Assembly: GCA_963846365.1 (NCBI GenBank)
Contig: CAWJVN010000008.1
Location: 120,072-184,071 of the forward strand
Direction: 5' to 3'
From: an uncultured Chloroflexia bacterium
Lineage (GTDB): Bacteria > Chloroflexota > Dormibacteria > Aeolococcales > Aeolococcaceae
DNA length: 64,000 bases
The translations under genes were made by a program, and so were the position numbers. Numbering within the stretch: position 1 is the first letter of the stretch; each line of letters starts with the position of its first letter. The notes under the pieces were generated by a model. That model saw nothing but the letters and a program-made list of their open reading frames with translations. It did not search any database and had not been told where the DNA came from. Positions 6,327 through 49,896 of the stretch are shown here, one piece after another.

Positions 6327-7820
6327 GTGACGGTGCGACGGCTGCGCTCGCGGCGCGGTGCGCTGTGGATGCTGATCGTGATGGCGCTGCTGGCGATGGC
6401 GGCATCGATGGCCCCGGCGGCGGCCCCGGTGTCGGCGGCGGCGCCGCCGGCGCTCGACGCCGCGGTGCGGGCCACCCTCGACGAGATCGACGCCCACGGC
6501 TTCAACCCGGTGACCGGCGGCCTCTTCATCAACTGGTCGGTCGACGACCCGGCCCGCTCCAACCTGCCCGACGGCAGCCCGGCGCGCCGCGACGAGCTCA
6601 CCGACCTGCGCGACGTGCTGAACATGGTGTGGTACCAGCGACGCCACTCCGGCGACCGCTCCCAGGCGGCGGCGCTGGCCCGGCTGACCGCGCCGCTTCG
6701 AGCCAAGGTTGTCCACTACTCCTCGGACAAGGGCTGGGTGTACTGGCAGTTCCTGCAGCTCGCCGGGCTCACCGGCGACGCCTTCTGGACGCAGCGGGCC
6801 CAGGCCTTCGCCGGCCACCTCGACGGCATCGTCGACCCCGCCGCGGGGGTGGTGCACGGCCACATCTCCTCCGCCGGCCACCAGCCCGCCTGCGCCGACG
6901 GCTACCGGGTCGACCACGACCTCGAGGGCGGTCTCGCCCTGGTCGACGCGGGGATGCGCTTCGGCGATCCCGGCTGGGTCGCGGTGGGGATGCGCGAGGC
7001 GCTCACGGTGATCTCCCAGGCCTACGACACCACCTACCACCTCTTCAACCACACCGTGTGCGGCGGCGTCCCCGCCGACCGCGAGGCGAAGGTCGGCGAG
7101 CAGGCCGACGAGGTGCTGGCGCTGCTCGACACCGGCGCCGCCACCGGGATCCCCGTGTTCACCGCCCTGGCCACCCAGATGCTCGACGGCCTGGTCGCCA
7201 ACTCCACCAGGCTCCACGACACCGCCGCCGGCGGCTTCTTCTTCGAGTTCGACCTGGGCACGCAGCAGGTGAGCAACAGCTACAAGGAGGTCCGCCAGCT
7301 CACCCTGCTCACCGCGCTGCACCGGGCGAACGCGCTGCAGGGAGGGCGCTACGCCGGGCTCGAGACGGAGATGACCGGGGTGGCACTGCGGATGCAGCAC
7401 CTGACCCCGCTCGCCGGCTACCCGTACCGCGAGACCGCCGGCTTCGACTTCTACCGCGGCGAGCGCCACATCACCACCGAGGCGGCGGGGATCGCCGCCG
7501 AGGCGCTGCAGAGCGTCCTCGACACCGCGCCGGCGGCGGCGCCGCTCGCGCCCCTGCCGCTGCCGTCGCTCCCCCTGGCCGCGGCGACGGCATCGCCGCC
7601 GGTCGCGACCGCGCCGCCGTCGCGCCCGCTCCCCGCGGTCCCGCCGGTGACCCTCCCGCGCGCCGCGACGGGTCGGGCGCCCGCCGCCGCCCCGCCGACC
7701 GCCGGCCCGGCACCCTCGCCCCCCGGCGGTCTGCCCGCCCGGCTGTCCGCGCTCTGCGGCAGGCTCCGCCTCTGTCCGCGGGGGGGATCTGAGACGGTGC
7801 GAGTTGCCCGGGTGATCTGA
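6327..7820 (+). CDS. Secreted (alpha/alpha)6-barrel protein, AGE/cellobiose-epimerase or glycoside hydrolase-like, Pro-rich tail
   Basis: Signal-peptide-like N-terminus, AGGAGG SD, helical repeats (LAGLTGDAFW, DHDLEG, LHDTAAGGFF). Family assignment is tentative. Confidence 0.5.
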   Translation: MTVRRLRSRRGALWMLIVMALLAMAASMAPAAAPVSAAAPPALDAAVRATLDEIDAHGFNPVTGGLFINWSVDDPARSNLPDGSPARRDELTDLRDVLNMVWYQRRHSGDRSQAAALARLTAPLRAKVVHYSSDKGWVYWQFLQLAGLTGDAFWTQRAQAFAGHLDGIVDPAAGVVHGHISSAGHQPACADGYRVDHDLEGGLALVDAGMRFGDPGWVAVGMREALTVISQAYDTTYHLFNHTVCGGVPADREAKVGEQADEVLALLDTGAATGIPVFTALATQMLDGLVANSTRLHDTAAGGFFFEFDLGTQQVSNSYKEVRQLTLLTALHRANALQGGRYAGLETEMTGVALRMQHLTPLAGYPYRETAGFDFYRGERHITTEAAGIAAEALQSVLDTAPAAAPLAPLPLPSLPLAAATASPPVATAPPSRPLPAVPPVTLPRAATGRAPAAAPPTAGPAPSPPGGLPARLSALCGRLRLCPRGGSETVRVARVI

Positions 7821-7845
7821 CACGCGTGGAGCTACCCGGGGATCT
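7781..7845 (+). repeat. GATCT-punctuated tandem repeat, locus A
   Basis: GATCTGAGACGGTGCGAGTTGCCCGGGT-GATCTGACACGCGTGGAGCTACCCGGG-GATCT; near-identical to 30204-30263. Confidence 0.9.
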
Positions 7846-7856
7846 CCACGGTCCGG

Positions 7857-9431
7857 TCACAGCAGCACCCCGGGGTTGAGGATCCACGCCGGGTCCCACG
7901 CCGCCTTCACCGCGCCGAGGCCCTCCGCGAACAGTGCCGGTACCTGACGGTCGTACCACGGGCGGTGGTCGCGGCCGACGGCGTGGTGGTGGGTGATCGT
8001 CCCGCCGGCGGCGAGGATGGCCTCGCTCGCGGCCGCCTTGACCTCGCCCCACTGCGCCCGCTGGTCGCCGTGCCGGCTGCGCGCGATCACCGTGAAGTAG
8101 GGGGCGCAGCCGTCCGGATAGACGTGGGTCAGCCGGCAGGTGACCAGGCCGGCCCCGCACACCTCCGCCACCGCCGCGGCGGCGCGCTCGGAGACCGCCC
8201 GCCAGAGCTCCTCGAAGCGGTCCCAGGTCACGGCGGTCTCGAAGGTCTCGACGATGTGTCCCAGGCGTGCGACCGCGTCGCGCACGTAGGGCAGCCGCAC
8301 GAATGCCGACCGCCACGCCTCCCCGGTCCCGGTGCCGGACTCCTCCCGCACCGCCTCCGCGACCCCGCCGGCGGCGGTGCAGAGCTCCAGGCCGCGGGCG
8401 AGGGCGGCGTCCACGGGATGGTCGGCGGACTCGAGGCCGAGCATCAGCAGGCAGGCGGAGCCGTCGCCCACCCGGTTGATCATCGCCTCGGTGGCGTCGA
8501 TCAGCCGGCAGGTGGCGGGGAGCAGCCCGCTCCGTCCCAGCGCCCGCGCGGCGGCGGCGCCGGCGGGCATGTCGGGGAAGCGGACCGTGGCCCGGGCGCG
8601 GAAGCGGGGGCGCTCGACCAGCCGCAGCCACGCCTCGGTGATCACCGCCAGCGTCCCCTCGGAGCCGAGCAGGAGGCGGTCGGGGCTGGGCCCCGCCCCC
8701 GATGCGGGCAGCCGCCGCGTCTCCAGCGTCCCCCGAGGGGTCACCGCGCGCATCCCCTCGACCCGGTCGTCGACGTGGGTGTGCAGGGTGGAGTGGTGGC
8801 CCGCCGACCGGGTCGCCAGCCAGCCGCCGACCGATGCGAACTCGTAGGACTGGGGCTGGTGGCGCATGGTCAGGCCCAGGGGGCGGAGCGACTCCTCGAG
8901 CGCCGGGCCCAGCGCCCCCGCCTGGACCCGGGCCGCCCGCGACACGGTGTCGACCTCGAGCACCCGGTCGAGGCGGGTGAGGTCGAGGCTCACCACGCCG
9001 GCGTAGCCGTCGCCGACCCGGGGGGTGACCCCGCCGACCACGCTGGTGCCCCCGCCGTACGGGACCGCGGCCACCCCGGCGGCGGTGCACCACTCCAGGA
9101 CCGCGGTCACCTCCGCCTCGTCGCCGGGGCGGAGCACCCAGTCGCAGGCGGCGTCGAGGTCGCCCTCGAGCATCGCCACCACGTCGAGGAACGACTGCCC
9201 GTGGCTGTGCACCGCCCGGCCCCGCTCGGAGCCGTCGGCGAGGCCGGCGAGGGCACCGGGCACGGCGATCCGCGGCGGCGGCAGGGCCAGCGCCTCGGGG
9301 TCGGGGGGCTGCCGCGGCCGTCCGGGATCGCCGAGGACGGCGGCGAGCATGGCGGCGAGCCGCTCGAGCTCCTCGCCGGCGACGGCGGCGTCCTCCCATC
9401 CCCAGCCCCACCAGGAGCGCCGCCGGGTCAC
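7857..9431 (-). CDS. FAD-binding oxidoreductase, alkylglycerone-phosphate synthase-like
   Basis: SWWGWG, PYGGGTSVVGG, PQSYEFASVGGWLATRS, LGSEGTLAVIT, ITHHHAVGRDH, DPAWILNPG. Confidence 0.85.
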   Translation of the reverse strand: MTRRRSWWGWGWEDAAVAGEELERLAAMLAAVLGDPGRPRQPPDPEALALPPPRIAVPGALAGLADGSERGRAVHSHGQSFLDVVAMLEGDLDAACDWVLRPGDEAEVTAVLEWCTAAGVAAVPYGGGTSVVGGVTPRVGDGYAGVVSLDLTRLDRVLEVDTVSRAARVQAGALGPALEESLRPLGLTMRHQPQSYEFASVGGWLATRSAGHHSTLHTHVDDRVEGMRAVTPRGTLETRRLPASGAGPSPDRLLLGSEGTLAVITEAWLRLVERPRFRARATVRFPDMPAGAAAARALGRSGLLPATCRLIDATEAMINRVGDGSACLLMLGLESADHPVDAALARGLELCTAAGGVAEAVREESGTGTGEAWRSAFVRLPYVRDAVARLGHIVETFETAVTWDRFEELWRAVSERAAAAVAEVCGAGLVTCRLTHVYPDGCAPYFTVIARSRHGDQRAQWGEVKAAASEAILAAGGTITHHHAVGRDHRPWYDRQVPALFAEGLGAVKAAWDPAWILNPGVLL

Positions 9432-9511
9432 CCGGGCGCGGCCGCCGAGGCCGTGGGTCGCGGCTGCGGCCGTACACTGGAGTCGTCGCTGCGCCCTCCG
9501 GAGGTCGAGAC

Positions 9512-10288
9512 ATGGCACAAGCGCTCCGCCGGGAGCTGACCATCCCCACGCCCCCGTCCTTCGCGTCGGTCGAGGACGAGCGCCTGCATCGCAAGCAGCG
9601 GCTCGCCGCGGCCTTCCGGATGTTCTCGAAGTGCGGCTTCGACGAGGGGGTGGCGGGACACATCACGGCTCGCGATCCGGAGCTGACCGATCACTTCTGG
9701 GTGAATCCCTTCGGGATGCACTTCGGCCAGATCAGGGTCTCCGACCTGCTCCTCGTCAACGACAGGGGCGAGGTGGTCGAGGGTGGCCGGGCGGTCAACG
9801 CCGCCGCCTTCGCGATCCACTCCCAGGTCCACAGGGCCCGCCCCGACGTGATCGCCGCCGCCCATGCCCACTCCCTGTACGGGAAGTCGTGGTCGTCGCT
9901 GGGCCGGCTGCTCGACCCCATCACCCAGGACGCCTGCGCCTTCTACGGCGATCATGCCCTCTTCGACGACTACACCGGCGTGGTCCTCGACCTCGAGGAG
10001 GGGCGGCGGATCAGCACCGCGCTGGGGAGCCGCAAGGCGGTGATCCTGCGCAACCACGGGCTGCTCACCGTCGGCCAGTCGGTGGACGAGGCGGCCTGGT
10101 GGTTCCTCACCATGGAGCGCTCCTGCCAGGCCCAGCTGCTCGCCGAGGCGGCGGGGTCGCCGGTGCTCATCGACGAGGCCTCCGCCGAGCTGACCGCCTC
10201 GCAGGTGGGGTCGCGGATCGCGGGGTGGTTCTCGTTCCAGCCGATCTGGGACCGCATCACCCGCGAGCAACCCGACCTCTTCGAGTAA
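9512..10288 (+). CDS. Class II aldolase/adducin family protein
   Basis: EGVAGHITARDP, FWVNPFG, AFAIHSQVH, AAAHAHS, ILRNHGLLTVG; GGAGG SD. Confidence 0.9.
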   Translation: MAQALRRELTIPTPPSFASVEDERLHRKQRLAAAFRMFSKCGFDEGVAGHITARDPELTDHFWVNPFGMHFGQIRVSDLLLVNDRGEVVEGGRAVNAAAFAIHSQVHRARPDVIAAAHAHSLYGKSWSSLGRLLDPITQDACAFYGDHALFDDYTGVVLDLEEGRRISTALGSRKAVILRNHGLLTVGQSVDEAAWWFLTMERSCQAQLLAEAAGSPVLIDEASAELTASQVGSRIAGWFSFQPIWDRITREQPDLFE

Positions 10289-10617
10289 TGCCCCTCGCCA
10301 GGGAGCACTGCGAGGCCTGCACCGGCTCGACCCCGACCGTGACCGGGCCCGAGCTCCAGGAGCTGTACGGGCAGCTCTCCTCGGAGTGGGAGGTCGACGG
10401 CGAGGTCCGGCTGCGGCGGCGGCTGCGCTTCCGTGACTTCGCCGCCGCCTTCGCCACCGCCACCCGGGTGGCGCTCATCGCCGAGGGCGAGGGGCACCAC
10501 CCCGACATGGCGGTGGGCTGGGGCCGGCTGGAGATCGAGCTCACCACCCACGCGGTGAAGGGGCTCACGCGCAACGACTTCATCCTGGCCGCCAAGGTGG
10601 ACGCCGCCCTGGCCTGA
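10288..10617 (+). CDS. phhB: Pterin-4a-carbinolamine dehydratase
   Basis: LAREHCEAC, AEGEGHHPD, TTHAVKGLTRNDFILAAKVD; TAATG overlap with upstream stop. Confidence 0.9.
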   Translation: MPLAREHCEACTGSTPTVTGPELQELYGQLSSEWEVDGEVRLRRRLRFRDFAAAFATATRVALIAEGEGHHPDMAVGWGRLEIELTTHAVKGLTRNDFILAAKVDAALA

Positions 10618-10648
10618 CGCGGCCCGCGGGTGCGCTACATTGCGCCCC

Positions 10649-10914
10649 GTGATCGAGCGTCTCGAGGCCTCGCCGGCGCCGGAGCAGACGCTGCGCGCCG
10701 CCGGTCTGCATCCCTCGCCGTGGTCGGCCGGGGGGGAGCGGTGTTCGGTCGTCACCGCCATCCCCGTCCCAAGCGCCTCTTCGTGGTCGAGGGGACGCTC
10801 AGCTTCGACGGCCTGCCGCTGGCCACCGGCGAGGGCATCCGCATCCCCGCCGGGGTCGAGCACTCGGCGGTGGCCGGCGACGGCGGGGTGCGCTGCGTCG
10901 AGGCCTTCGAGTGA
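10649..10914 (+). pseudogene. Small cupin protein interrupted by an apparent frameshift in a G7 run
   Basis: N-part IERLEAS..HPSPWSA in one frame; C-part GAVFGRHRHP..LFVVEGTLSF..GEGIRIPAGVEHSA in another; junction is G7 at 10730-10736. Confidence 0.65.
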
Positions 10915-10933
10915 GCTCAGGGGAGGGCCGGCC

Positions 10934-11398
10934 ATGACCACCGATCCGCCGCCGCAGATCACCCCGAAGCATGCGGCCATGGATGCGGCGGTGCGCGCCG
11001 CCCCGGGTCTCCACCAGCCACGGCTGGAGCTGTCGAAGCACCACCGTGGCAGCGGCATCCTCGACCGCATCGCCAGCCTGGTCAACACGATCGTCGGCTC
11101 GATGTACGTGTTCGTCGGGGTCACCGTCGGCATCGTGGTGTGGCTCTTCGCAGGCAACATCGTCGGCTTCGACAAGACCCCCTGGCCGCTGCTGCTCACC
11201 ATCCTCAACCTGCCCCAGCTGTCGATCATGATCTCGCTGCAGGTGAGCGCCAACCTGGCCCAGCGCACCGCCGACGCCCGTGCCCTCGCCGACCACCAGA
11301 CCCTGATCGCGCTCCACGAGCTGAGCACGCAGCAGCTCGGCATCCTCGAGGGTCAGAACCAGGTGCTCGAGCTGCTGCGCGAGCACGTCCCCTCCTGA
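10934..11398 (+). CDS. DUF1003-like membrane protein
   Basis: DRIA..VGSMY..FDKTPWPLLLTILNLPQL..IMISLQ; GGGAGG SD. Confidence 0.75.
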   Translation: MTTDPPPQITPKHAAMDAAVRAAPGLHQPRLELSKHHRGSGILDRIASLVNTIVGSMYVFVGVTVGIVVWLFAGNIVGFDKTPWPLLLTILNLPQLSIMISLQVSANLAQRTADARALADHQTLIALHELSTQQLGILEGQNQVLELLREHVPS

Positions 11399-11409
11399 GC
11401 GGCCCGGAA

Positions 11410-12144
11410 TCACGGGGTGCGGCGGCGCAGCGTCAGCGCGCCGAGCAGCAGGGCGAGCAGGGCGCAGCCGCCGACGACGGCGATGTCGCGGACCAGCCCG
11501 CCGGTGACCGCCGCCGACGAGGTCACCAGCCGCATCGCGTCCACCGCGTAGGAGAGCGGCAGCAGGTCGGAGATGCGGGTCAGCACCGGCGCCATCTCCT
11601 GGCGGGGGATGAAGAGACCGCAGAGCAGCACCTGGGGCAGCGCGAAGAGCGGCATGAACTGCACCGCCTGGAACTCGGTGCGCGCGAACGCGCTGACCAG
11701 CAGCCCCAGGGCCATCCCGAGCAGGGCGTCGAGCACCGCCACCGTGAGCATCAGCGCCACCGATCCGCTGACGGCGAGGCCGAGCCAGGTCAGCGACACC
11801 GCCGCCACCACCGCCACCTGCACCACCGCGAAGACCCCGAAGGCGAGGGCGTGGCCGAGCAGCAGGTCAAGCCGGTTCAGCGGCATCGTCATCAGCCGCT
11901 CGAGCGTGCCGGTGGTGCGCTCGCGGAGGGTGCCGACCGATGCGATGAGAAACATCACGATGAAGGGGAAGATGCCGAGCAGCGACGGCGCCACCCCCTG
12001 GAAGGCTCGGGGCGCGTCGAGCACGTAGCGGAGCAGCACCACCAGCAGGGTGGGGAGCAGGGTCGTCATCGCCACCGTCCGCGGGTCGTGGCGCAGCTGA
12101 CCGAGGACGCGTCGGGTCGTGGCGAGGGTGATCGCGAGGTTCAC
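11410..12144 (-). CDS. ABC-2 type transporter permease
   Basis: QLRHDPRT, LRERTTGTLERL, ARTEFQAVQFMP, PLSYAVDA; GTGA overlap with the ATPase stop. Confidence 0.9.
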   Translation of the reverse strand: MNLAITLATTRRVLGQLRHDPRTVAMTTLLPTLLVVLLRYVLDAPRAFQGVAPSLLGIFPFIVMFLIASVGTLRERTTGTLERLMTMPLNRLDLLLGHALAFGVFAVVQVAVVAAVSLTWLGLAVSGSVALMLTVAVLDALLGMALGLLVSAFARTEFQAVQFMPLFALPQVLLCGLFIPRQEMAPVLTRISDLLPLSYAVDAMRLVTSSAAVTGGLVRDIAVVGGCALLALLLGALTLRRRTP

Positions 12145-12884: not shown

Positions 12885-12960
12885 CGCACGATGAATGTAC
12901 TCGGGATCACGCCCCGCAACTCGCTGGGGCCGGCGCGCCGGCCGGGACGGCGGCCGGCGG

Positions 12961-14799
<1,839 letters not shown>

Positions 14800-14879
14800 C
14801 GCCGCATCGTACAGGGGTTGGCCGAACCGCACCGGGCGGCGGGCTGCCCGCCGCCCCGGTGGTCCGTGACACTGGCTGG

Positions 14880-16358: not shown

Positions 16359-16517
16359 GGAGAGATCCTGGTTGGCGCGAATCCGGTCGCGCTGGCCGGG
16401 TGGGCGGCCTGCGGGCCGAGGTCCATCACCGCTGCGGAGCCTACCGATGCACGATAACCCGCCCGTAAACATGCGTGCCGCCCGGATGGCGCGCACCCCC
16501 CGCACCGGAGGAGAACC

Positions 16518-17510: not shown

Positions 17511-17528
17511 TCCGCCCCGGGCGGCCGG

Positions 17529-18065: not shown

Positions 18066-18228
18066 ATCGTGCTCCCGCTGCCCCGGTGGTGGACCTCGCC
18101 AGAACATGGAGACGGGCCGGGGTTGCGACTTCTTGCGGGGGTCATCGGACCGCGACCCAGCCTTTACAAGGCTTCACAACTTTCACCGTCTGCGTGTCAC
18201 CGCCTGCGCTCACGCGCAGTCCCGCCGG

Positions 18229-18846
18229 CTACTTCCCCGGCGGCCGGTCCAGGGCCTTCAGCCGGACCATCGCGTAGCGGGCGAACTCCTCGTCGTCGGA
18301 GCCGACCGCGAACTGGAACGCCCGGCGGGCACCCTCGGTGTCGCCGATCGACTGGAGCAGCTGGGCCAGCTCCATCGCGGCCACCGGGCCGCCCACCGGG
18401 TCGCCGGAGTCGATGGTGATCTGGAAGGCGGCGCGGGCGCCGTCGGCGTCGCCCCGGTCGCGGAGCAGGCCGCCGAGGTTGAAGGCGGCCCGGGGCGCGT
18501 GCTCGGGGTCGCCGAAGTCGATCGCGATCCGGTAGGCGGCGAGGGCGCCGTCGGGGTCGTCGAGCTCGTGGAGGAGGACCCCGAGGTTGAAGGCGGCGGC
18601 CGCGGAGTGGCTGGGATGGCCGCACGCCACCGCCTTGCGGTAGGCGTCCTCGGCGCCGACGGCGTCGCCGTCCGCCTCGGCCAGCTGTCCCAGCGAGAAC
18701 AGGGCGATCACCAGGGCCTCGGGGTCCTGGGTGCGGGTGGCGGCGACGAAGGCCGCGCGCGCGCCCTCGAGATCGCCCTGCTCCTCGAGGGCCATCCCCT
18801 CGTCGAGCCGGCTCATGGCCACGTGATCGGGTTGTCCGGCTTCCAT
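18229..18846 (-). CDS. Tetratricopeptide repeat protein
   Basis: About five repeats of the AAFNLGxLL..GDxDGARAAF/Y pattern. Confidence 0.85.
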   Translation of the reverse strand: MEAGQPDHVAMSRLDEGMALEEQGDLEGARAAFVAATRTQDPEALVIALFSLGQLAEADGDAVGAEDAYRKAVACGHPSHSAAAAFNLGVLLHELDDPDGALAAYRIAIDFGDPEHAPRAAFNLGGLLRDRGDADGARAAFQITIDSGDPVGGPVAAMELAQLLQSIGDTEGARRAFQFAVGSDDEEFARYAMVRLKALDRPPGK

Positions 18847-19013: not shown

Positions 19014-21581
<2,568 letters not shown>

Positions 21582-22440: not shown

Positions 22441-22466
22441 GGGGAGCCGCCGGTAGACTGGGCTCG

Positions 22467-28935: not shown

Positions 28936-30162
28936 GTGAGAGGAGGGGAGGCGCTGCGGACGCCACCGGCGGTCGCGCCCGCCGCGGCGAGGGCGGTGCA
29001 TCCGCTGCTGCTCGCCGCCGGGCTGGCCGCCGGCCCCGCGGTGGTGCTCGGCATCGCCCGGTTCGCCTACGGCCTGCTCCTCCCCGGGATGCGTGCCGAC
29101 CTCCACTGGTCCTTCGCCCAGGCGGGGACGATCAACGCCGCCAACGCCCTCGGCTACCTGGCCGGGGCGATGCTCACCCCGCGGGTGACCGCCCGCCTCG
29201 GCCGCCGCCCCGCCTTCCTCGGCGGCATGGTGGTCGTCGTCGTGGCGCTGGTGGCGACCGGGCTGGCCTCCGGCTTCGGCGCCCTGCTGGCGCTGCGGGT
29301 CGTCGCCGGCGTCGCCGGCGCGCTGGTCTTCATCGGTGGCATGGAACTCGCCGCCTGGCTCGGTCACGGGCGCTCGAGCATCCGGGCCGCGGTGCTGCTC
29401 GGCGTCTACGTCGGCGGGGGCGGCCTCGGCATCGTGGTCTCGGGGATGGTGGTGCCGCCGATCCTCGCCCTCGGGGGAGCGAGTGGATGGCGCCTCGGCT
29501 GGCTGATGCTGGCGGCGCTGTCGCTCGCCGGGCTGATGGCGGCGCGGTGGGCGTCCGGCCGGGTCGAGGCCCCCGCGATGTCGCGGCGAGGCGAGGGCGC
29601 GGGCTGGCCGGCGCGCCGGTTCGTCCCCAGCCTGATCGCCTACACGCTCTTCGGCGTCGGCTACATCTCCTACATCACCTTCGTCGTCGCGCTGCTGGTG
29701 CACCAGGGGTTGAGCCGGGTGGTGGTGGGGTCGTTCTGGGTGCTGCTCGGCCTCGCGTCGCTGCTGAGCGTGCCCCTCTGGGGCCGGGTGCTGGGGCGGC
29801 TGCGCGGCGGGCGGGGCCCGGCGCTGGTGCTCGCGGTGGTGGCTGCGGGAGCGGCGCTGCCGCTGCTCGGCGGCGGCGCGGCGGCCGCGATGGCCTCGGC
29901 GCTGGTCTTCGGCGGCGCCTTCCTCTCCGTGGTCACCTCCTTCACCGCGGTCGCCCGCGCCGCCCTGCCCGCCCCCCAGTGGGGCCCGGCGATCGCCGCG
30001 CTCACCGCCGTCTTCGCCCTCGGCCAGTGCGCCGGCCCGGTGCTCACCGGCCTGCTGTCCGACGTCGCCGGCGGGGTGGGTGTCGGGCTCGGGCTCTCCG
30101 CCGCCGTGCTCGGTCTCGCCTCCCTGATCGCTTTCGCCCAGGCCCCTCCGGGGGATCTGTGA
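28936..30162 (+). CDS. YbfB/YjiJ-family MFS transporter
   Basis: GIARFAYGLLLPGM, ANALGYLAG, FGVGYISYITF, FALGQCAGP; about 12 TM helices. Confidence 0.88.
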   Translation: MRGGEALRTPPAVAPAAARAVHPLLLAAGLAAGPAVVLGIARFAYGLLLPGMRADLHWSFAQAGTINAANALGYLAGAMLTPRVTARLGRRPAFLGGMVVVVVALVATGLASGFGALLALRVVAGVAGALVFIGGMELAAWLGHGRSSIRAAVLLGVYVGGGGLGIVVSGMVVPPILALGGASGWRLGWLMLAALSLAGLMAARWASGRVEAPAMSRRGEGAGWPARRFVPSLIAYTLFGVGYISYITFVVALLVHQGLSRVVVGSFWVLLGLASLLSVPLWGRVLGRLRGGRGPALVLAVVAAGAALPLLGGGAAAAMASALVFGGAFLSVVTSFTAVARAALPAPQWGPAIAALTAVFALGQCAGPVLTGLLSDVAGGVGVGLGLSAAVLGLASLIAFAQAPPGDL

Positions 30163-30317
30163 CCCGTTGCTCGGGGATCTGTGACGGTGCGAGTTGCCCG
30201 GGTGATCTGAGACGGTGCGAGTTGCCCGGGTGATCTGACACGCGTGGAGGTACCCGGGGATCTTCTAACACAGGTTTTTACCGGGGGGAGGCGTACGCCT
30301 CCCCCGGTAAAAAAACC
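30151..30317 (+). repeat. GATCT-punctuated tandem repeat array ending in a G6/C5 hairpin, locus B
   Basis: Five GATCT-started units (22-28 bp), then near-perfect palindrome TTTTTACCGGGGGGAGGCGTACGCCTCCCCCGGTAAAAA. Confidence 0.9.
30273..30317. terminator. Bidirectional intrinsic terminator-like hairpin (part of the repeat family)
   Basis: GC stem flanked by T5 and A7 between the convergent MFS gene and rnpB. Confidence 0.55.
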
Positions 30318-30403: not shown

Positions 30404-30414
30404 CCGGGGGTGAT

Positions 30415-30823
30415 GCAAGCCGGCCTGTAAGCCGGGTTCTGTCCCCACCGCCTGTTCGACCCCAACGGGGGCCACCCCCGGCGGTGGGGGACGGCCATCC
30501 ATCTGGAGCGCCGGTTGCCCGGCGCCTCGAGCGGCCTCACCCGGGGTCTGGGACGAGCAGCCCCTGGAGCGCCGGAGCGCTCCGCCCCTGTTCGGCCTTG
30601 CTCCGGGCGGGGTTTACCTGGCCGGCCGGTCACCCGGCCGCCGGTGGGCTCTTACCCCACCATTTCACCGTTGCCGCGGCGCGCCTGCGCGCACCGTGGC
30701 TGTGTCCTTTCTGTGGCACTCTCCTTCGGGTCACCCCGACTGGGCGTTACCCAGCGCCCTGCTCTGCGGAGCCCGGACTTTCCTCGAGCGGTCGAGCCGC
30801 CCGCGGCCGTCCGGCCGGCTTGC
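30415..30823 (-). ncRNA. rnpB: RNase P RNA, bacterial type A
   Basis: GAGGAAAGTCCGGGCTCC, GAGAGTGCCACAGAAA, GGTAAGAGCCCAC, GGTAAACCCC..GGAGCAAGG, ACAGAACCCGGCTTA; P1 GCAAGCCGGCC/GGCCGGCTTGC; TAGACT -10 at 30830-30835. Confidence 0.97.
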
Positions 30824-43596: not shown

Positions 43597-44561
43597 GCCC
43601 GCGCCGGGTGGCCGTGGTCTGCGGCGGGGCCAGCAGCGAGGCGGCGGTCTCGCGCGACAGCGGCGGCCAGGTGCTCGCCGCGCTGCGGGCCCGCGGCCAC
43701 GACTGCACGCTGCTGGAGTGCGATCCCGACCTTCCCGCGCGGCTGCGGGACGGCGGCTACGAGGTGGCGTTCCTCGCGGTCCACGGCCGTTTCGGCGAGG
43801 ACGGCGTCGTCCAGGGCACCTGCGAGCTGCTCGGCATCCCCCACACCGGGAGCGGGGTGCTCGCGTCGGCGCTCTGCTTCGACAAGGCGACGGCGAAGCG
43901 GCTGCTGGTCGCCGCCGGACTGGACACCCCGGCATGGCGGCTGGTGCGCCGCGACCTCGACACCGGGGCCACCGCGGTGGCGATCCACGCGGCGGCGGCC
44001 GAGCTCGGCATGCCGCTGATCGTGAAGCCCAATCGCGGCGGCTCCACCATCGGGCTCACCGTGGTCCGGGACACATCCGGCCTGAACTCCGCCTGGTCGG
44101 CGGCCGCAGAGCACGACCACGTGCTCTGCGAGCGGATGGTCAGCGGAACCGAGATCACCATTGGTATCCTGGGCGCCGATCCGCCCGAGGCACTGCCCAC
44201 CCTCGAGATCGTCTCCCACCGTCCCCTCTACGACTATGCAGCGAAGTACACCGCGGGTCAGAGCGAGCACATCATCCCGGCGCGTCTCCCCGAGCCGCAG
44301 CGGGTGCGCGCCCAGCACGCCGCGACCGCCGCGCACGTCGCCCTGGGGTGCGAGGGGATGTCCCGCGTCGACGTCATCGTCGACGCCGCCGGGGTGCCCT
44401 GGGTGCTGGAGGTGAACACCACCCCCGGGCTCACCGCGCTCTCGCTGCTCCCCGACGCCGCGGCCGCCGCCGGCATCCCCTTCGAGTCGCTCTGCGAGCG
44501 CATCCTCGAGGACGCGCTGCAGCGCCACCGGCCCGGCTGTCCCACCGAGGTGGGCGGATGA
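43593..44561 (+). CDS. ddl: D-alanine--D-alanine ligase
   Basis: GGASSEAAVS, HGRFGEDG, KPNRGGSTIG, YDYAAKY, LEVNTTPG. Confidence 0.95.
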   Translation: MSPRRVAVVCGGASSEAAVSRDSGGQVLAALRARGHDCTLLECDPDLPARLRDGGYEVAFLAVHGRFGEDGVVQGTCELLGIPHTGSGVLASALCFDKATAKRLLVAAGLDTPAWRLVRRDLDTGATAVAIHAAAAELGMPLIVKPNRGGSTIGLTVVRDTSGLNSAWSAAAEHDHVLCERMVSGTEITIGILGADPPEALPTLEIVSHRPLYDYAAKYTAGQSEHIIPARLPEPQRVRAQHAATAAHVALGCEGMSRVDVIVDAAGVPWVLEVNTTPGLTALSLLPDAAAAAGIPFESLCERILEDALQRHRPGCPTEVGG

Positions 44562-45649
44562 GCCCCACCGACACCCGCCGCCGCGGCCAGGCCCGCGAGA
44601 CCGCCGCCCGCATCGTCGACGCGCCGCGGGTGCCGCGGCAGTTCAGCCTTGCGCCCGAGTCGGCGCTGCGCGGCTCCGCCCGCCGCCGCCTCCACGCACC
44701 CCGGTCGCGCGCCGCCCGGCGTCCCGCGCTGGTCGGCGGCAGCCGCGGGCGTGGTGCGGCCGTCCTGGTGTTCGCCGAGCTGGCGCTGCTGGTGGCGCTG
44801 CTGGTGCTGCCCACCTTCCACGCCGCCGGCATCGACGTGCGCGGTGCCCGGCTGCTCTCCCACCAGGCGGTGCTCGACGCCGCCGGGATCGGTGACACCC
44901 AGAGCATCTTCACGATCGACGGCGAGGTGGTCCGTCAGCGGCTGGAGCGGCTGCCCTGGGTGCGCCGCGCCTCGGTGGAGACCGAGCTGCCCGCGACGGT
45001 ACGCATCACCATCGTGGAGTGGGAGCCGGTGCTCGAGGTGCGCCGCGGCGGCACCAGCGTGCTGGTCGCGGGCGGCGGCGCCATGGTCGACCGCCGCTCG
45101 GTGCGGTCCACCGCGCTGCCCCCGGTACCGGTGCTGATCGACGAGCGCCCGTCCGCCTCCGGGGACGCGCCGCCGCTCGACGAGGCGCTGGTGCGGCTGC
45201 TGCCGGCGATCGCCGGCGGCTTCCCGGCCGCGGTCGGCTGCGCCGTCGCCGACTTCCGCTGGCAGAGCGACGGCCGCCTGGTGGTCGACTCCGCCTGCCG
45301 CTGGGCGGCGGTGCTGGGGCGGGCCGCGGCCCCCGCCGAGGTGGCGGCGATCCCCGGGCAGATCGCCGCCCTCGCGGCGTTGAAGGGCCGGCTCGACTTC
45401 GCCAGGCCCGACTTCGGCTACGTCGACCTGGAGGACGCCTCCGCGCCGGCGGTCGGCGGCAGGCCCGGCGAGGCCCGCCCCGCGGCCGCCGCCCCCGCGC
45501 CCGCGCCGGCGCCCCCGCCCCCGGCGAAGCCCGCGGCCGCCGCCACCCCGGCGCCCACGCCGAAGCCGACCCCGACCCCGACCCCGGCGCCGACCCCCAA
45601 GCCGACGCCCACGACCTACAGCTTCTCGGTGGGACCGCCCCGCCGCTGA
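44558..45649 (+). CDS. ftsQ: FtsQ/DivIB with Pro/Thr-rich C-terminal tail
   Basis: TM helix, POTRA (IDVRGARLLS..LPWVRRASV..LPATVRITIVE), YVDL motif. Confidence 0.85.
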   Translation: MSPTDTRRRGQARETAARIVDAPRVPRQFSLAPESALRGSARRRLHAPRSRAARRPALVGGSRGRGAAVLVFAELALLVALLVLPTFHAAGIDVRGARLLSHQAVLDAAGIGDTQSIFTIDGEVVRQRLERLPWVRRASVETELPATVRITIVEWEPVLEVRRGGTSVLVAGGGAMVDRRSVRSTALPPVPVLIDERPSASGDAPPLDEALVRLLPAIAGGFPAAVGCAVADFRWQSDGRLVVDSACRWAAVLGRAAAPAEVAAIPGQIAALAALKGRLDFARPDFGYVDLEDASAPAVGGRPGEARPAAAAPAPAPAPPPPAKPAAAATPAPTPKPTPTPTPAPTPKPTPTTYSFSVGPPRR

Positions 45650-45662
45650 GCGGGCGGCCCGC

Positions 45663-46076
45663 TCAGACCGGTGCGGGCCGGCCGGCGCGGCGCTGCTCCT
45701 CGACCAGCGAGCGGCGTGCCCGGAGGAGGGCGGCATGGGCACGGCGCAGCGGGCGGCGGTCCCGAGCGTCGAGCCGGCGGGTGATCTCCTCCTCGAGCTG
45801 CACCTCGACGGTGCGCAGCGCGGCCATCGCCCGGCGCAGTGCGTCGACGGCCTCCTCCTCCGCCGCATCGGCCGACTCCGCGACCCGGCCGTCCAGCTCC
45901 GCCTCGGCCCCGTCGGTGACCGGGCCGTCGACGAAGAGGCGGATCACCTCGCGGGCCCGCTCGACGCACTCCTCGACCGTCCCCCCGCTGGCGGCCCAGC
46001 CGGGGAGGTCGGCGACGGTGGCGATCATGCCCCCGTCCTCGGCGGCGGGCTGGACCACGATGGTGTAGGCGCGCAT
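45663..46076 (-). CDS. HicB-like antitoxin domain protein with helical C-terminus
   Basis: YTIVVQP.EDGG...VADLPG..SGGTVEECVERAREVIRL; GAGGAGG SD. Confidence 0.7.
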   Translation of the reverse strand: MRAYTIVVQPAAEDGGMIATVADLPGWAASGGTVEECVERAREVIRLFVDGPVTDGAEAELDGRVAESADAAEEEAVDALRRAMAALRTVEVQLEEEITRRLDARDRRPLRRAHAALLRARRSLVEEQRRAGRPAPV

Positions 46077-46193
46077 GGTGCCTCCTCGACCCGACCCGGG
46101 TCGGTCTGACGGTGCGGCGGCCCCGTTCCCCCTTGGGATCGCCATGGTGCGCGAATCCATGGCGGAGTCAAGGCTCCCACCGGGAGATGACCA

Positions 46194-47081
46194 CTACTGG
46201 GAGAGGAAGCTCCGAATCGCCGAGGCGGTTGCGGGGTGGGTCATCACCCCATAGTGGTTGGCGTCGACCTCGACGATCTGGGCCCCGGGGACGGTGCGCA
46301 GGAAGTGGTCGCGGTCGGCGGTGCCGACGACGTGGCCGCCGAGGGGGAGCAGCGGCCGGGTGGCCCGCACCAGCAGCACCGGCATGACCAGCCTGCCCCA
46401 CAGCGCGTGGGGATCGCGCCAGCCCCCGTAGGCCATGTCCTCGAGAACCGCCACCGGGTCGGTGCGGGGCCGGACCCCGCCGGCGTCGGCGACGAGCTCG
46501 TAGCGGAAGGCGCGGTCCCAGTACTCGTTCCAGGGGGTGACGATGCCGGTGAGGCGGACCCGCTCCAGGTACTGGTCGGCGGTGCGGCTGGGCCCGGCGA
46601 GGCGGCGCACCACCCGCAGGATGGCGGTGATCGCGAGCATGTCGGGGAGGCCGAGCCCGTCGACGAGGACGACGCGGCGGATGTCGGTGGGGTCGAGCCC
46701 CGCCATCTCCATGGCGACGAAGGCGCCCATCGAGTGCCCGATGACGTCGAAAGGGGGCCGGCCCAGCTGGCCGGCGGCGCCGAGCACGTCGCGGGCGTGG
46801 CGGCGCCAGCCGTAGGTGCCGGGAGGGCTGACGCTGCTGTGGCCGCGGCCGCGCAGGTCGAGGGCCACCAGCTGCCGCCGTCCTCCGCCGAGGCGCTCGC
46901 CGAGGAAGTCGAAGCTGCGCGAGTTGGCGCTGATGCCGGGGATGCCGACCGCGACCCGCCCCCGTCCGGGCCCGAAGCGGTGGGCGCGCAGCCGCCCCGA
47001 GGGCAGGATCAGGTCGAGCGCCGCCGGCTCCTGCCACTCGCGGTCCGGGCGCTCGACGCTGGTCAGCGGGGCCGCTCCCAC
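46194..47081 (-). CDS. Alpha/beta hydrolase; start uncertain
   Basis: PGISAN, ALDLRGRGHS, GHSMGA, ANHY. Confidence 0.88.
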   Translation of the reverse strand: MGAAPLTSVERPDREWQEPAALDLILPSGRLRAHRFGPGRGRVAVGIPGISANSRSFDFLGERLGGGRRQLVALDLRGRGHSSVSPPGTYGWRRHARDVLGAAGQLGRPPFDVIGHSMGAFVAMEMAGLDPTDIRRVVLVDGLGLPDMLAITAILRVVRRLAGPSRTADQYLERVRLTGIVTPWNEYWDRAFRYELVADAGGVRPRTDPVAVLEDMAYGGWRDPHALWGRLVMPVLLVRATRPLLPLGGHVVGTADRDHFLRTVPGAQIVEVDANHYGVMTHPATASAIRSFLSQ

Positions 47082-47947
47082 GGCCGCGCCGCCTGCAGGG
47101 CGCTGAGGATGGCGCGGGTGGCGGGGGAGCGGTTGAGCGTGTAGAAGTGGATGCCGGGGGCGCCACCGGCGAGCAGCTCGGCACACTGGAGCGTCGCCCA
47201 CGCCACCCCCAGCTGCACCACCGCGTCCGCGTCGTCGCTGCGCCGGAGCAGCGCCTCGCGCAGCCGGGCGGGCACCCGGGCGCCGAAGAGGCTGCTCTCG
47301 AAGCGCGAGAGCTGGCGCACCGAGGTGATCGGCATGATCCCGGGCACGATCGGCACGGTGATGCCCGCGGCCCTCGCCCGGGAGGTGAAGTCGGCGTAGG
47401 CGGCGTTGTCGAAGAAGAGCTGGGTGATGAGGAAGTCCACCCCGCTCTCCACCTTGAGGACGGTGTGGCGGAGATCCTCCTCCGGGCTCGCCGACTCGGT
47501 GTGCCCCTCCGGGTAGCAGGCGCCGCCGACGCAGAAGTCGTACTCGCGGCGGATCATCGCGGCCAGCTCGCTGCCGTGGTCCAGACCGCCCTCGACCGGG
47601 CGGAAGGCGCTCTCGCCCCTGGGCGGATCGCCGCGCAGCGCCAGCACGTTGTCGATCCCGGCGTCGCGGAGCGGGCCGAGGGTGGCGTGGAGCTCGTCGC
47701 GGGTGGCGCCGGCACAGGTGTAGTGGGCCATCGGCTCGATGCCGGTGGAGGCGCGGATCCGGGTGACCAGCTCCAAAGTGCGGGTCCGGGAGTGATTGCG
47801 GCAGGTGACCGAGACGAACGACGGCTCGAGCTCGCGGAGCTCACCGATGGTGCGGAAGAGCGTCTCGGTGCCCGCCTCGGTGTCCGGGGGGAAGAACTCG
47901 AAGGAGAAGACCGGCCGCCGCGTGGCCAGCATCTCGGTGATGCGCAT
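47063..47947 (-). CDS. metF: Methylenetetrahydrofolate reductase
   Basis: FSFEFFPP, FVSVT, LALRGDPP, YPEGH, ITQLFFD, PGIMPI, GIHFYTLN. Confidence 0.96.
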   Translation of the reverse strand: MRITEMLATRRPVFSFEFFPPDTEAGTETLFRTIGELRELEPSFVSVTCRNHSRTRTLELVTRIRASTGIEPMAHYTCAGATRDELHATLGPLRDAGIDNVLALRGDPPRGESAFRPVEGGLDHGSELAAMIRREYDFCVGGACYPEGHTESASPEEDLRHTVLKVESGVDFLITQLFFDNAAYADFTSRARAAGITVPIVPGIMPITSVRQLSRFESSLFGARVPARLREALLRRSDDADAVVQLGVAWATLQCAELLAGGAPGIHFYTLNRSPATRAILSALQAARPWERPR

Positions 47948-48015
47948 GGGCCGCTATCCTGCCCGATTTCGGCGCCGCCGCAGCCTCTCCCGCCCCCGTG
48001 CTACCTTCCGGCGCC

Positions 48016-49062
48016 ATGCTCGCCGCATATCTCGCCCGCACCGGCGGGGACGACCCGCTCGCCAATCTCGAGGTCGGTGACCTCCCCACCCCGGAGCCCC
48101 GCCCCGGCTGGGCGCTGCTGAAGGTCGAGGCCGCATCCCTCAACCACCACGACCTGTGGCTGCTCCGGGGCATCTCCGCCAGCCCCATCGAGCCCCCCCA
48201 GGTGCTCGGCACCGACGCCGCCGGCACGGTGGCCGCCTACGGACCCGACCCCCCCGAGGGGGCGCCCGAGGTGGGCTCGCCGGTGCTGCTCCACGCGGTG
48301 ATCAGCTGCGGCGTCTGCGCCGCCTGCCGCCGCGGCGAGGAGCTCTTCTGCCGCCGGATGGCGCTCTTCAGCGACCGTCCCTACGACGGCACCCTCGCCG
48401 AGTACGTCGCCGTGCCGGCCGCCAACCTGGTGTCCCGTCCCCCCGAGATCGACGCCGCCGAGGCCGCCTGCCTGCCCACCGCATATCTCACCGCCTACCG
48501 GATGCTCTTCACCCGCGCCGGGCTGCGGCCGGGGTCGACGGTGCTCATCCAGGGCGTCGGCGGCGGCGTGGCCAGCGCGGCGCTGGCGCTCTGCCGGGCC
48601 ACCGGCATCACCGCCATCGCCACCTCCCGGGACGAGGCGAAGCGCGCCGCCGCCCTCGAACAGGGCGCCGTCGCGGCGCTCGCGCCCGACCGCGGCGCCG
48701 CCAAGCAGGTGCTCTCCCTGACCGGCGGCGTCGACGCCGTCATCGAGACCGTCGGGGCCGCCACCTGGGACCTGAGCCTGCGCGCGGTGCGCCCCGGCGG
48801 CGCCGTGGTCGTGGCCGGCGCCACCTCCGGCGGCGACCCCCCCTCGCAGCTCAACCGGGTCTTCTACCGGCAGATCTCGGTGCTGGGCTCGACGATGGGC
48901 ACCCGGGCCGAGCTGGAGCGGTTGCTCACCCTGGTGCGCAGCTCGGGGATCCACCCCCGGATCGACCGCACCTACCCCCTCGCCGAGGCGCGCGAGGCGC
49001 TCCGGCGGATGGCCGCCGGCGAGCAGCAGGGGAAGATCGTCCTCGTCCCCCAGCCGGCTTGA
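48016..49062 (+). CDS. Zinc-binding alcohol dehydrogenase/quinone reductase (MDR)
   Basis: SLNHHDLW, LGTDAAG, CGVCAACRRGEELFC, TAYRML, GVGGGV, LGSTMG, GKIVL. Confidence 0.9.
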   Translation: MLAAYLARTGGDDPLANLEVGDLPTPEPRPGWALLKVEAASLNHHDLWLLRGISASPIEPPQVLGTDAAGTVAAYGPDPPEGAPEVGSPVLLHAVISCGVCAACRRGEELFCRRMALFSDRPYDGTLAEYVAVPAANLVSRPPEIDAAEAACLPTAYLTAYRMLFTRAGLRPGSTVLIQGVGGGVASAALALCRATGITAIATSRDEAKRAAALEQGAVAALAPDRGAAKQVLSLTGGVDAVIETVGAATWDLSLRAVRPGGAVVVAGATSGGDPPSQLNRVFYRQISVLGSTMGTRAELERLLTLVRSSGIHPRIDRTYPLAEAREALRRMAAGEQQGKIVLVPQPA

Positions 49063-49114
49063 CGCGACCCACGCATCCGGAATTCTCGCCTCTTCCCCGT
49101 CTCATTTTTCGTTC

Positions 49115-49143
49115 TTTACACCCGCCGGAGCCGGTGCTACCGT
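49115..49143 (+). promoter_or_regulatory. Sigma70-type promoter
   Basis: TTTACA(49115)-17 bp-TACCGT(49138) with TG extension; AT-rich upstream. Confidence 0.65.
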
Positions 49144-49149
49144 TGCCGG

Positions 49150-49227
49150 GCGTCCGCGGCCCGACAGGGGCCGCAGCCGGCAGGGCTTCATCAGCCAGGT
49201 GCAGTGATGAGGCCCTGTTTGCTGTTT
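49150..49227 (+). ncRNA. Candidate small RNA (~80 nt, two hairpins, terminator-like end)
   Basis: Upstream promoter; stems 49156-49174 and 49181-49217, followed by TTTGCTGTTT; no SD/ORF inside. Confidence 0.45.
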
Positions 49228-49244
49228 AAGGGCCCTGTTGGTGG

Positions 49245-49896
49245 GGGTGCCCGGGCAATCTCACATCCGTGGAGATGCCCGGGGATCTTCTCACACACGT
49301 TTGTACCGGGGGGAGGCTACGCCTCCCCCCGCTCAGGCCCAAGACATCGTGCGCTGGCGCGCCCGATGCCGGGGCCTACCCCCCTCCACGCCGGCACTCG
49401 CCGGCGACGCTCGCGTCGCTCGCTCTGCGTCTTCGCGCCGGGCGGCCGAGGTACCACGAGGAACGCTGCGCGTTCCTCACAACCACTGGCCGAGCGGCTC
49501 GGACGGGTGAATTGCTTGACCCCCGCAGCCGCACCCCGGTCCTTCCCGACGGCGACTCCTGCACGGCGCACAGCGCAGGCGTGAGGAACGCGGAGCGTTC
49601 CTCCCTGGTACCTCGGCGCCCGGCGCGAACGCGAAGATGAAAAGCGCGCGAACGCGCGCATCGGCCGGGAGTCCGGCCGTGGAGGGGGTAGCACACGGCA
49701 TCGGGCGCGCCAGCGCACGATGTCTTGTGCTGAGCGGGGGGAGGCTACGCCTCCCCCCGGTAAGAACGTGTGGCAGAGCTACCTGGTACCTCCACGCGTG
49801 TGAGATCCCCCGAGCAACAGCCTGGTACCTCCACCCGGCGCAGCTCCCCCGAGCAACAGCCGGGCATCACCACCCGCGTCAGATCCCCGAGCAACG
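49245..49896. repeat. Long imperfect inverted-repeat element (REPIN/MITE-like) built from the GATCT repeat family, locus C
   Basis: Arms about 49258-49480 and 49581-49806 are reverse complements (e.g. CAAGACATCGTGCGCTGGCGCGCCCGATGCCG); extra tandem units continue to 49896. Confidence 0.85.

Follow-up and report, generated by a model that had tools for sequence, protein, structure and literature searches.

The four repeat arrays found in this stretch of DNA are pieces of one composite palindromic repeat family, restricted to a single genus of high-GC uncultured soil bacteria. The window, the whole 64,000-nucleotide stretch analysed here (C8:120072-184071), contains arrays at 7781-7845, 30151-30317, 49245-49330 and 49735-49896, as an earlier note had reported. 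The last two had been counted as separate loci; they are actually the two ends of one element of about 650 bp (49245-49896) that is palindromic as a whole.

Results

Parts of the element in the window

At up to three mismatches, module a (28 bp) and module b (27 bp) each have three matches in the window, and the H1 hairpin has two. The mean for modules and hairpin in 100 shuffled windows was 0.00-0.01, with a chance expectation of about zero. Locus A (7786-7845) shares 97% identity with 30200-30263. The hairpin GGGGGGAGGC-N3-4-GCCTCCCCCC indeed closes three of the arrays, locus A being without it, and arrays supply the stop codons of two upstream ORFs (7818-7820 and 30160-30162, inside GATCTGA / GATCTGTGA). 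The orthologues of these ORFs in relatives have their stop codons at other places. The earlier claim that all loci lie at or just past gene 3' ends is fully valid only for A and B, since the complete element (locus C/D), 183 bp past the 3' end of an ADH-like gene, is upstream of ftsA. The parts are as follows (a dot in place of the strand where none applies).

7786..7845 (+): locus A, array-only remnant; modules a, b, then GATCT
7786-7813 (+): locus A module a, module match
7814-7840 (+): locus A module b, with the upstream ORF stop 7818-7820 inside
7841-7845 (+): locus A, next GATCT
30154..30258 (+): locus B array; short unit and modules a', a, b
30154-30175 (+): locus B short unit, with the stop of the MFS-transporter ORF (30160-30162) inside
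30176-30203 (+): locus B module a'
30204-30231 (+): locus B module a
30232-30258 (+): locus B module b
30259..30315 (.): locus B spacer (module-like GATCTTCTAACACAGGTTTTT), single H1 and A-run; 'mini' form without core
30280-30308 (.): locus B H1, ACC-GGGGGGAGGC-GTAC-GCCTCCCCC-GGT
49245..49304 (+): left end of the complete element; degenerate module (about 49248-49284) and module-like spacer GATCTTCTCACACACGTTTGT
49305..49331 (.): H1 left hairpin, ACC-GGGGGGAGGC-TAC-GCCTCCCCCC
49332..49734 (+): core; left arm, asymmetric centre (about 49480-49580), right arm
49341-49370 and 49697-49726: 30-bp inverted repeat, each half also folding as hairpin H2
49390-49405 and 49663-49678: H3
49458-49478 and 49583-49603: H5
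49376..49394 (+): IS1 target in the left arm, CTACCCCCCT^CCACGCCGG, unoccupied in the window
about 49675-49691: mirror IS1 target in the right arm
49735..49761 (.): H1 right hairpin
49762..49896 (-): right end; spacer and three inverted long-type modules (module b plus GTTGCTCGGG linker, 38-40 bp)

Architecture and folding

A full copy runs from inward tandem modules through a module-like spacer, H1 (a G-rich hairpin), the core, a second H1 and a spacer to inverted modules. Its modules measure 27-40 bp and stand in direct tandem in variable number. The core, about 400 bp long, has an asymmetric centre flanked by two arms that are imperfectly complementary and each carry hairpins H2-H5 in a row, and its polarity is the same across copies. 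Neither this palindromic core, between 49245-49330 and 49735-49896, nor the hierarchy of derivative forms had appeared in the earlier note. The array at 30151-30317 is such a derivative, with one array and one H1; its architecture recurs at C7:830087 and C7:1061116, there with inverted modules on the far side.

Modules within one array share their orientation and only the two arrays are mutually inverted; forward module heads all precede reverse heads in 11 of the 12 loci that have heads on both strands. Arrays start mid-module, at variable points, and none of modules a, b and c folds by itself. A reading of the modules as REP/BIME units is not supported: they form no hairpins and follow one another in direct tandem, not in alternating orientation.

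As single-stranded DNA, the core folds at -272 kcal/mol (z = -18.7). Across copies, the hairpins are maintained via compensatory changes: both sides have changed in 21 of 117 predicted pairs, in H1, H3, H5 and the long-range arm pairs, with paired changes in the H1 stem seen in G004/G007 (right side), G001 and a second subfamily of G000, the genome that holds the window. The H1 loop is variable (TAC, GTA, GTAC, GAC, GCA and others) while the stem is constant. The perfect 30-bp inverted repeat is invariant in 24 aligned cores from five genomes; no inverted repeat of the element is more conserved, and its place is some 35 bp inside H1, not at the element tip. H1 is flanked on both strands by T-rich sequence 5' and A-rich sequence 3'. 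On the minus strand, a T-rich run follows H4, which has a terminator-like score. The right-arm H3 reads CGTC-GGCCGG-GAGT-CCGGCC-GTGG and therefore has a CGTC-like head, on a stem of 6-7 bp that is all G/C.

On both strands several frames are open in all copies, which fits a G+C content of about 75%, and single-base gaps between copies disrupt any common reading frame. Only RNase P matched in the window at Rfam gathering scores; the best E-value within 49150-49990 was 0.14, far below those scores. No curated Rfam covariance model matched the repeats. No promoter-like site was found in the element.

Copy number and distribution

The 4.45-Mb G000 genome has at least 22 loci of the family, with 36 arm matches, 36 array pieces (blastn) and 34 H1 hairpins, 29 of them adjoining a core arm and three in mini elements. 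All 22 curated loci lie between genes, in many cases convergent ones. Arm counts obtained with a covariance model of one arm place the family in all seven other genomes of the genus: at least 60 in each of G004 and G007, 29 in G005, 13 in G001, 7 in G002, 6 in G003 and 4 in G006, with a roughly ninefold spread between G002 and G004/G007. In other genera of the family, five marginal arm matches (E 1e-4 to 9e-4) were obtained in 4 of 53 genomes, and public records with the element are labelled as MAGs of Chloroflexota or Candidatus Dormiibacterota. These data bear out the earlier description of a lineage-specific, dispersed repeat family, which appears to be non-coding; its further copies are many, its positions are not fixed and Rfam offers no match.

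Core identity is 82-93% within G000, 81-95% within G004/G007 and 66-77% between the groups; flanking DNA of G000 and G004/G007 is mostly about 85-87% identical, and more so at rnpB and one other locus. The module sequences are species-specific. No pair of G000 cores exceeds 93% identity, and hence there is no sign of very recent movement.

Variation between relatives

Module number and order differ between loci, as had been noted, and the sites themselves differ between relatives. G002, the closest relative (flanks 91-96% identical to G000), is empty at two full copies without any replacement: single G002 contigs have 15 bp against 611 bp in G000 at C1:310.7 kb, where G001 is empty too, and 15 bp against 604 bp at C1:725.9 kb. 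The 15 bp left at C1:725.9 kb resembles a module junction, and the empty G002 sites could instead be deletions. At C1:594.5 kb, G002 lacks the element together with 1.3 kb, and G007 has the element.

Locus A is only an array in G000 versus a gene-bearing interval of 1893 bp in G002, and other genes occupy the junction in G005 and G007; at both A and B, the genes enclosed by the shared flanks differ from relative to relative. One copy in G004 coincides with a break in synteny when compared with G005 and G007. Comparisons that cross the element in short-read MAG contigs are possibly chimeric, and we relied only on element-free sites in relatives. Array length also differs at orthologous G000 and G002 loci, and in run X2 a contig of 97% identity shows 151 letters against 61 in the window (49227-49289). 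Neither a target-site duplication nor a sharp common end was seen at the junctions examined (C1:310.7 kb, C1:725.9 kb, locus A, G004 copy), where the fuzzy element ends could have hidden a short duplication.

A landing pad for IS110-family insertion sequences

Two IS110-family insertion sequences use the repeat family as their landing pad. All 6 copies of the first, IS1 (1577 bp; domains DEDD_Tnp_IS110 and Transposase_20), lie elsewhere in G000 and are inserted in a single orientation at CTACCCCCCT^CCACGG of a core arm, and CT is present at both junctions. Within the IS1 leader (290 nt) are predicted bridge-RNA-like guides that match this site: CCCCCCT (left target), CCGTGGAG (right target, reverse complement), GTGGGATGT (right end of the IS) and CCATTAG (CT+AATGG, reverse complement). 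The second, an IS110-like IS, was seen at the H5 base both in G000 and in a metagenome contig. Among the genus genomes IS1 is confined to G000, and beyond the target it has no sequence in common with the repeat. The IS110 elements, listed in the earlier note as a possible mobiliser, use the repeat as a target and do not carry it.

Search for a mobiliser

The earlier note's statement that the window has no mobilising gene was checked for the IS110 and Y1 families, neither of which gave a match there. The RAYT/HUH transposase that the note named as one candidate mobiliser was not found in the genus either: Y1_Tnp (PF01797) was detected in 0 of 8 genomes (completeness 65-96%), with positive controls in 6 of 14 known genomes. 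G000 gave no TnpB-type domain, and its self-comparison revealed no autonomous IS that shares the ends of the element; no such IS was seen in 80 genome-contig loci (of 110 matching stretches) and 16 metagenome loci, few of which were read fully, and viral contigs gave 0 element matches. Classification as REP/REPIN was accordingly rejected on the RAYT gene, not found in the 8 genus genomes, and on the unit, as the modules do not fold and the H3 stem is 6-7 bp of G/C only; BIME was rejected on the same-orientation modules within each array. As for MITE-type traits, the family has inverted repeats (30 bp, invariant) and presence/absence at orthologous sites; neither a target duplication of fixed length at the junctions examined nor an autonomous IS sharing its ends in the loci searched was seen.

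Discussion

The family is multi-copy and intergenic, with species-specific subfamilies, presence/absence between relatives and arrays of variable length. On balance, and with somewhat better than even confidence, we favour a non-autonomous repeat, mobile and unstable, of MITE/BIME/NIME-like character. A trans-acting enzyme, not a RAYT, would recognise the invariant 30-bp inverted repeat and the folded hairpins. The arrays may be tandem duplications of the element's own terminal segment, and slippage or unequal exchange would lengthen or shorten them. The two H1 copies are both direct and inverted repeats of one another; recombination between them would remove the core to leave a 'mini' form, as at 30151-30317, and further loss would leave array-only scars such as 7781-7845.

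The compensatory changes and the invariant 30-mer suit selection by the host as well as recognition by a transposase. Under host selection, which we consider rather unlikely, hairpins in RNA or extruded DNA would act as two-way transcription stops, mRNA 3'-end stabilisers or nucleoid-protein sites, and recombination, not transposition, would spread the copies. The exclusively intergenic loci, often between convergent genes, and the terminator-like H4 with its T-rich run on the minus strand would fit this, as would the REPs of other bacteria, which PMC3733652 describes as mostly downstream of coding regions and plausibly transcribed. The H1 flanks, however, are the opposite of a canonical intrinsic terminator on both strands, neither an Rfam family nor a promoter-like site was matched, and the two sites empty in G002 without replacement, like the ninefold copy-number spread within the genus, are at odds with a conserved host function. 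The different genes between common flanks at loci A and B, the gain or loss of 1.3 kb of adjacent DNA along with the element at C1:594.5 kb and the G004 copy at a synteny break would point to repeats that mark gene-cassette junctions at hot spots, as sites or by-products of a site-specific recombinase (IS110/Piv-like or tyrosine), and are not themselves mobile. Two IS110 lineages do recognise the hairpins, and module b, read in reverse complement, contains TACCTCCACGCG, a sequence similar to the IS1 target TACCCCCCTCCACGCC. We nevertheless hold this to be improbable: a variable H1 loop on a constant stem is unexpected for a crossover spacer, the left and right arrays are inverted whereas attL and attR would be direct, IS1 occurs in G000 only while the family is genus-wide, and chimeric assembly may account for breaks in synteny in MAGs from short reads.

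Movement of a REP/BIME family by a RAYT (HUH Y1) transposase, the version of the earlier note, is largely refuted and very hard to sustain. A dispersed extragenic palindromic repeat with mosaic arrays would suit it, and so would the CGTC-like head of the right-arm H3, CGTC-tagged REPs being a superfamily described in PMC3733652. The same paper gives CGTC families stems of 8-9 bp whose first pairs are almost always A/T, against 6-7 bp of G/C in H3; Y1_Tnp was detected in none of the 8 genus genomes and a TnpB-type domain was not found in G000, as stated above, and the modules are direct tandem units without hairpins. A bolder idea, to which we give a small chance, is that the five-hairpin arm with its invariant 30-mer is the substrate of a hairpin-recognising mobilisation undescribed in bacteria, the RNA-guided IS110 having later adopted the element as a safe harbour. 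This might involve a new enzyme family of an uncultured phylum, or enzyme-free template switching at extruded cruciforms, making a bacterial 'foldback' element; template switching would also account for the mirror-image, variable arrays.

Relation to known repeats

Like MITEs, the element is apparently non-coding, 0.5-0.7 kb long and palindromic, with conserved inverted repeats, many copies, lineage-specific subfamilies and presence/absence between relatives. Unlike them, it shows neither a target-site duplication nor a defined outer end, the loci searched yielded no autonomous parent sharing its ends, and its best conserved inverted repeat is internal to H1. Eukaryotic foldback elements have long inverted ends made of tandem subrepeats in variable number, an architecture that the inverted ends described here share. 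Mycobacterial MIRUs consist of tandem units some tens of bp long, present at several dozen loci between genes, with strain-variable copy number, and some overlap the stop codon of the upstream gene; our element resembles such VNTRs in its tandem units, dispersed intergenic loci, variable number and stop-codon overlap, whereas MIRUs lack inverted arrays around hairpins and an associated core. In Neisseria, an IS110/Piv-like recombinase targets dRS3, and gene content varies at the sites that NIMEs mark. Our element resembles NIMEs in its clustered intergenic arrays, in which a short motif punctuates the repeat units. PMC3733652 treats dRS3 as a CGTC-1 REP in large clusters. Sequence and phylum are unrelated, and our two inverted array sets flank hairpins and a core. 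Proteobacterial BIMEs/REPINs are targets of IS110-family IS (PMC1525189, PMC11208160) and share with the element an extragenic mosaic of units and linkers, a position downstream of genes, large folds and use by IS110. They differ in that our units are direct tandem and not self-folding, there is no GTAG head, no RAYT in the 8 genus genomes, and the 400-bp multi-hairpin core has no BIME counterpart. IS1 recalls IS110/IS1111 elements with bridge or seek RNA in its domains, single target, orientation and leader guides; this likeness concerns IS1, not the repeat, and the IS1 RNA is a prediction.

We found no earlier account in the literature of interspersed repeats from the Dormibacterota, a soil phylum about which little is known, and inverted tandem-subrepeat arrays around a multi-hairpin core are an unusual architecture among bacteria. 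Contigs in the relatives' assemblies often terminate in the element, which therefore probably breaks short-read assemblies, and it coincides with sites of differing gene content between species. With no RAYT found in the 8 genomes of the genus, REP-like families can, it appears, persist without one. A natural multi-copy target, together with an IS110 whose predicted guides can be read, helps to study how bridge RNAs choose safe sites.

Arrays and the composite element in the window

The arrays that the earlier note had described at 7781-7845, 30151-30317, 49245-49330 and 49735-49896 agree in sequence with its account, and the first two do supply the stop codons of the upstream ORFs, as it had claimed (7818-7820 and 30160-30162 lie inside the arrays). 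The last two, which it had treated as separate loci, are instead parts of one element, with a core of about 400 bp between two hairpins. From left to right, this element comprises inward-facing tandem modules, a spacer, a hairpin (H1), the two-arm core, H1 again, a spacer and inverted modules.

Features of the window
7781-7845: locus A, modules alone
18354-18569: a 108-bp unit, twice in tandem (71% identity)
30151-30317: locus B, modules plus H1; its hairpin lies about 100 bp past the 3′ end of the RNase P RNA
30412-30822, minus strand: RNase P RNA, bacterial class A (242.7 bits)
49063-49230: stretch of about 170 bp between an ADH-like gene and the full element
49245-49896: full element
50002-52612, just downstream of the full element: ftsA (Pfam FtsA, SHS2_FTSA), then a putative ftsZ ORF

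The 28-bp and 27-bp modules each have three matches in the window at no more than 3 mismatches and the hairpin has two, compared to a mean of 0.00-0.01 in shuffled sequence; between locus A and 30200-30263, identity is 97%. A degenerate, fuzzy module pattern was dropped (69 matches in the genome vs. 53 in the reversed genome). The stretch at 49063-49230 is conserved in the closest relative, G002, and has at its end a hairpin and then a T-rich run (GGCTTCATCA...TGATGAGGCC CTGTTTGCTGTTT). It had no Rfam match at the gathering score and may represent either a small RNA or the true terminator of the ADH-like gene.

Distribution of the family

Blastn with the core gave matches in all seven other genomes of the genus (G001 to G007); four of 33 genomes from other genera also gave matches, with E-values of only about 1e-3 to 1e-4. 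With a covariance model built on one arm, we detected 36 arms in the source genome (G000), at least 60 in each of G004 and G007, 29 in G005, 13 in G001, 7 in G002, 6 in G003 and 4 in G006, vs. five marginal matches in 4 of 53 genomes from other genera of the family. Public contigs containing a 26-mer are titled as MAGs of Chloroflexota or Candidatus Dormiibacterota. The 30-mer of the core's inverted repeat was present in 16 metagenome contigs and in no viral contig.

Structure of the core

The source genome (4.45 Mb, 8 contigs, C1 to C8, with the window at C8:120072-184071; 73.6% G+C) has further core copies, 82-93% identical, at C1:310.7, 594.5 and 725.9 kb, C2:294.8 kb, and C7:152, 1050 and 1182 kb, as well as others interrupted by insertions or contig ends. 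The core is itself a long imperfect palindrome (fold z = -18.7). In an alignment of 24 cores from 5 genomes, its polarity is fixed and each arm carries a series of hairpins.

Hairpins in the 24-core alignment
H1: G6AGGC-N3-4-GCCTC6
H2: AAGACATCG...CGATGCC
H3: GCCGGC-ACTC-GCCGGC or GGCCGG-ACTCC-CGGCC
H4: GCGCGC-TTC-GCGCGC
H5: GAGGAACGC-N3-GCGTTCCTC or GAGCAACGC...GCGTTGCTC

H2 in the main subfamily is a 30-bp perfect inverted repeat, invariant in all 24 aligned copies. RNAalifold predicted 117 pairs, of which 21, among them local hairpin pairs and arm-to-arm pairs, have both sides changed; since the aligned copies share descent, such counts represent few independent events. H1 varies between genomes: the right-side H1 reads GGGGGGGAC-GCA-GTCCCCCCC in G004 and G007, H1 of G001 reads GGGGGGAGGG-TA-CCCTCCCCCC, and older copies in the source genome carry another variant. 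The left and right H1 stems differ in G004 and G007, ruling out the H1 pair as a target-site duplication, while flanks that are T-rich 5′ and A-rich 3′ on both strands rule out H1 as a canonical terminator. A (GA)n run of about nine units, one of them interrupted, lies in the middle of an old variant of the core (C2:345270-345300).

Modules and derivative forms

The source genome has about 40 module units, in classes of 27, 28-29 and 38-40 bp (the listing of 45 units includes a few flank artefacts). At 11 of the 12 loci with both orientations, forward module heads come ahead of the reverse ones, the exception being a GATC match outside the array. We interpret the arrays as the terminal segment of the element copied in tandem, since the spacer adjoining H1 is module-like, and since spacer and modules are both of different, species-specific sequence in G004 and G007.

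Derivative forms in the source genome, besides window loci A and B
Modules-H1-modules, without core: C7:830 kb, C7:1061 kb
Modules facing modules, without H1: C8:257 kb, C7:1227 kb, C1:655 kb
H1 in fourfold tandem: C2:345 kb
Half cores and degenerate fragments

IS110-family insertions in the core

A 1577-bp IS110-family element, IS1, with DEDD_Tnp_IS110 and Transposase_20 domains, occurs in the source genome only inside the repeat core. For all six copies, the insertion point within a core arm is CTACCCCCCT^CCACGG, and the orientation is the same. The copies are about 99-100% identical, one being interrupted by another IS, and IS1 is very young. It was not found in six of the seven relatives; G002 has only IS1 relatives of 67-71% identity.

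IS1 copies in the source genome
C1:365-1941
C1:635135-638331 (split)
C3:147-1723
C4:374-1949
C7:1486121-1487697
C7:1518225-1519801

The 290-nt leader of IS1 contains CCCCCCT, matching the left target, then 12 nt later CCGTGGAG, the complement of the right target, and also GTGGGATGT and CCATTAG, which match the ends of IS1 itself. Bridge RNAs are described as having this layout; the RNA here is predicted. IS1 and the repeat are probably the cause of the remaining assembly gaps, as three contigs begin within an IS1 copy. The split copy holds a 1.6-kb element (C1:635524-637139) with a 455-aa ORF, apparently a candidate DDE-type transposase.

A second, different IS110-like element lies at the base of H5, both at C7:1484852-1485920, where it measures only 1068 bp and appears to be frameshifted, and in a fuller copy on L210 (1950-2961), a soil metagenome contig of the other subfamily. 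No link with the repeats was seen for the IS110-like genes at C2:46.9 kb and C5:13.9 kb.

Differences between relatives

The flanks in G002 are 91-96% identical to those of the source genome. At two sites, single G002 contigs have 15 bp vs. 611 bp (C1:310.7 kb) and 604 bp (C1:725.9 kb) in the source genome, and G001 is likewise empty at the first. G007 has the element at C1:594.5 kb, where in G002 both it and 1.3 kb beside it are missing. The locus A junction holds a 1893-bp interval of other genes in G002, other genes also in G005 and G007, a different gene in G006 and almost nothing in G001. At locus B, the gene content between an MFS transporter gene and rnpB differs in each relative, and a full element adjoins rnpB in G007. 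No target duplication was seen at any junction examined.

Array length also varies. The window element has about one and a half left modules vs. four in its G002 orthologue, and a 97% identical contig from sequencing run X2 has a longer left array (151 letters vs. 61). Contigs of four sequencing runs break inside the element, none spanning it whole. An apparent core inversion in the G002 orthologue was set aside because the right flank of that contig matches C7:152 kb of the source genome, so that either a rearrangement or chimeric assembly may lie behind it. A synteny break at a G004 copy may likewise reflect either. At L026 (G003:C159:10800-11965), two inverted core copies flank about 400 bp in which the start of a gene, together with the sequence upstream, is duplicated as a palindrome; this looks like an inverted duplication arisen at the element.

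Candidate mobilisers and known repeat kinds

The RAYT transposase that had been suggested as a candidate mobiliser is not supported, Y1_Tnp (RAYT, IS200) having been found in none of the eight genomes of the genus. No TnpB-type domain was found in the source genome, and its self-comparison gave no longer element sharing these ends; in a Y2_Tnp search, the controls gave no match. A 1.36-kb multi-copy family (C4:131010-132371 and about ten related copies, e.g. C7:79928-81274 and C7:762855-764151) was rejected as unrelated and without link to the repeats. It codes for a protein of about 480 aa with an HNH-type motif near the C-terminus, which we take to resemble the DUF222/13E12-repeat proteins of actinobacteria.

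Other repeats for comparison are MIRU and foldback elements; dRS3 is linked to an IS110-like recombinase. The present family behaves like MITE, BIME and NIME repeats, but departs from both REP/RAYT and BIME on their defining tests, the REP criteria being those of PMC3733652. A classic MITE has a target duplication and an autonomous parent, neither of which was found for this family. The repeat family is real and genus-specific, and its nested architecture is unusual.
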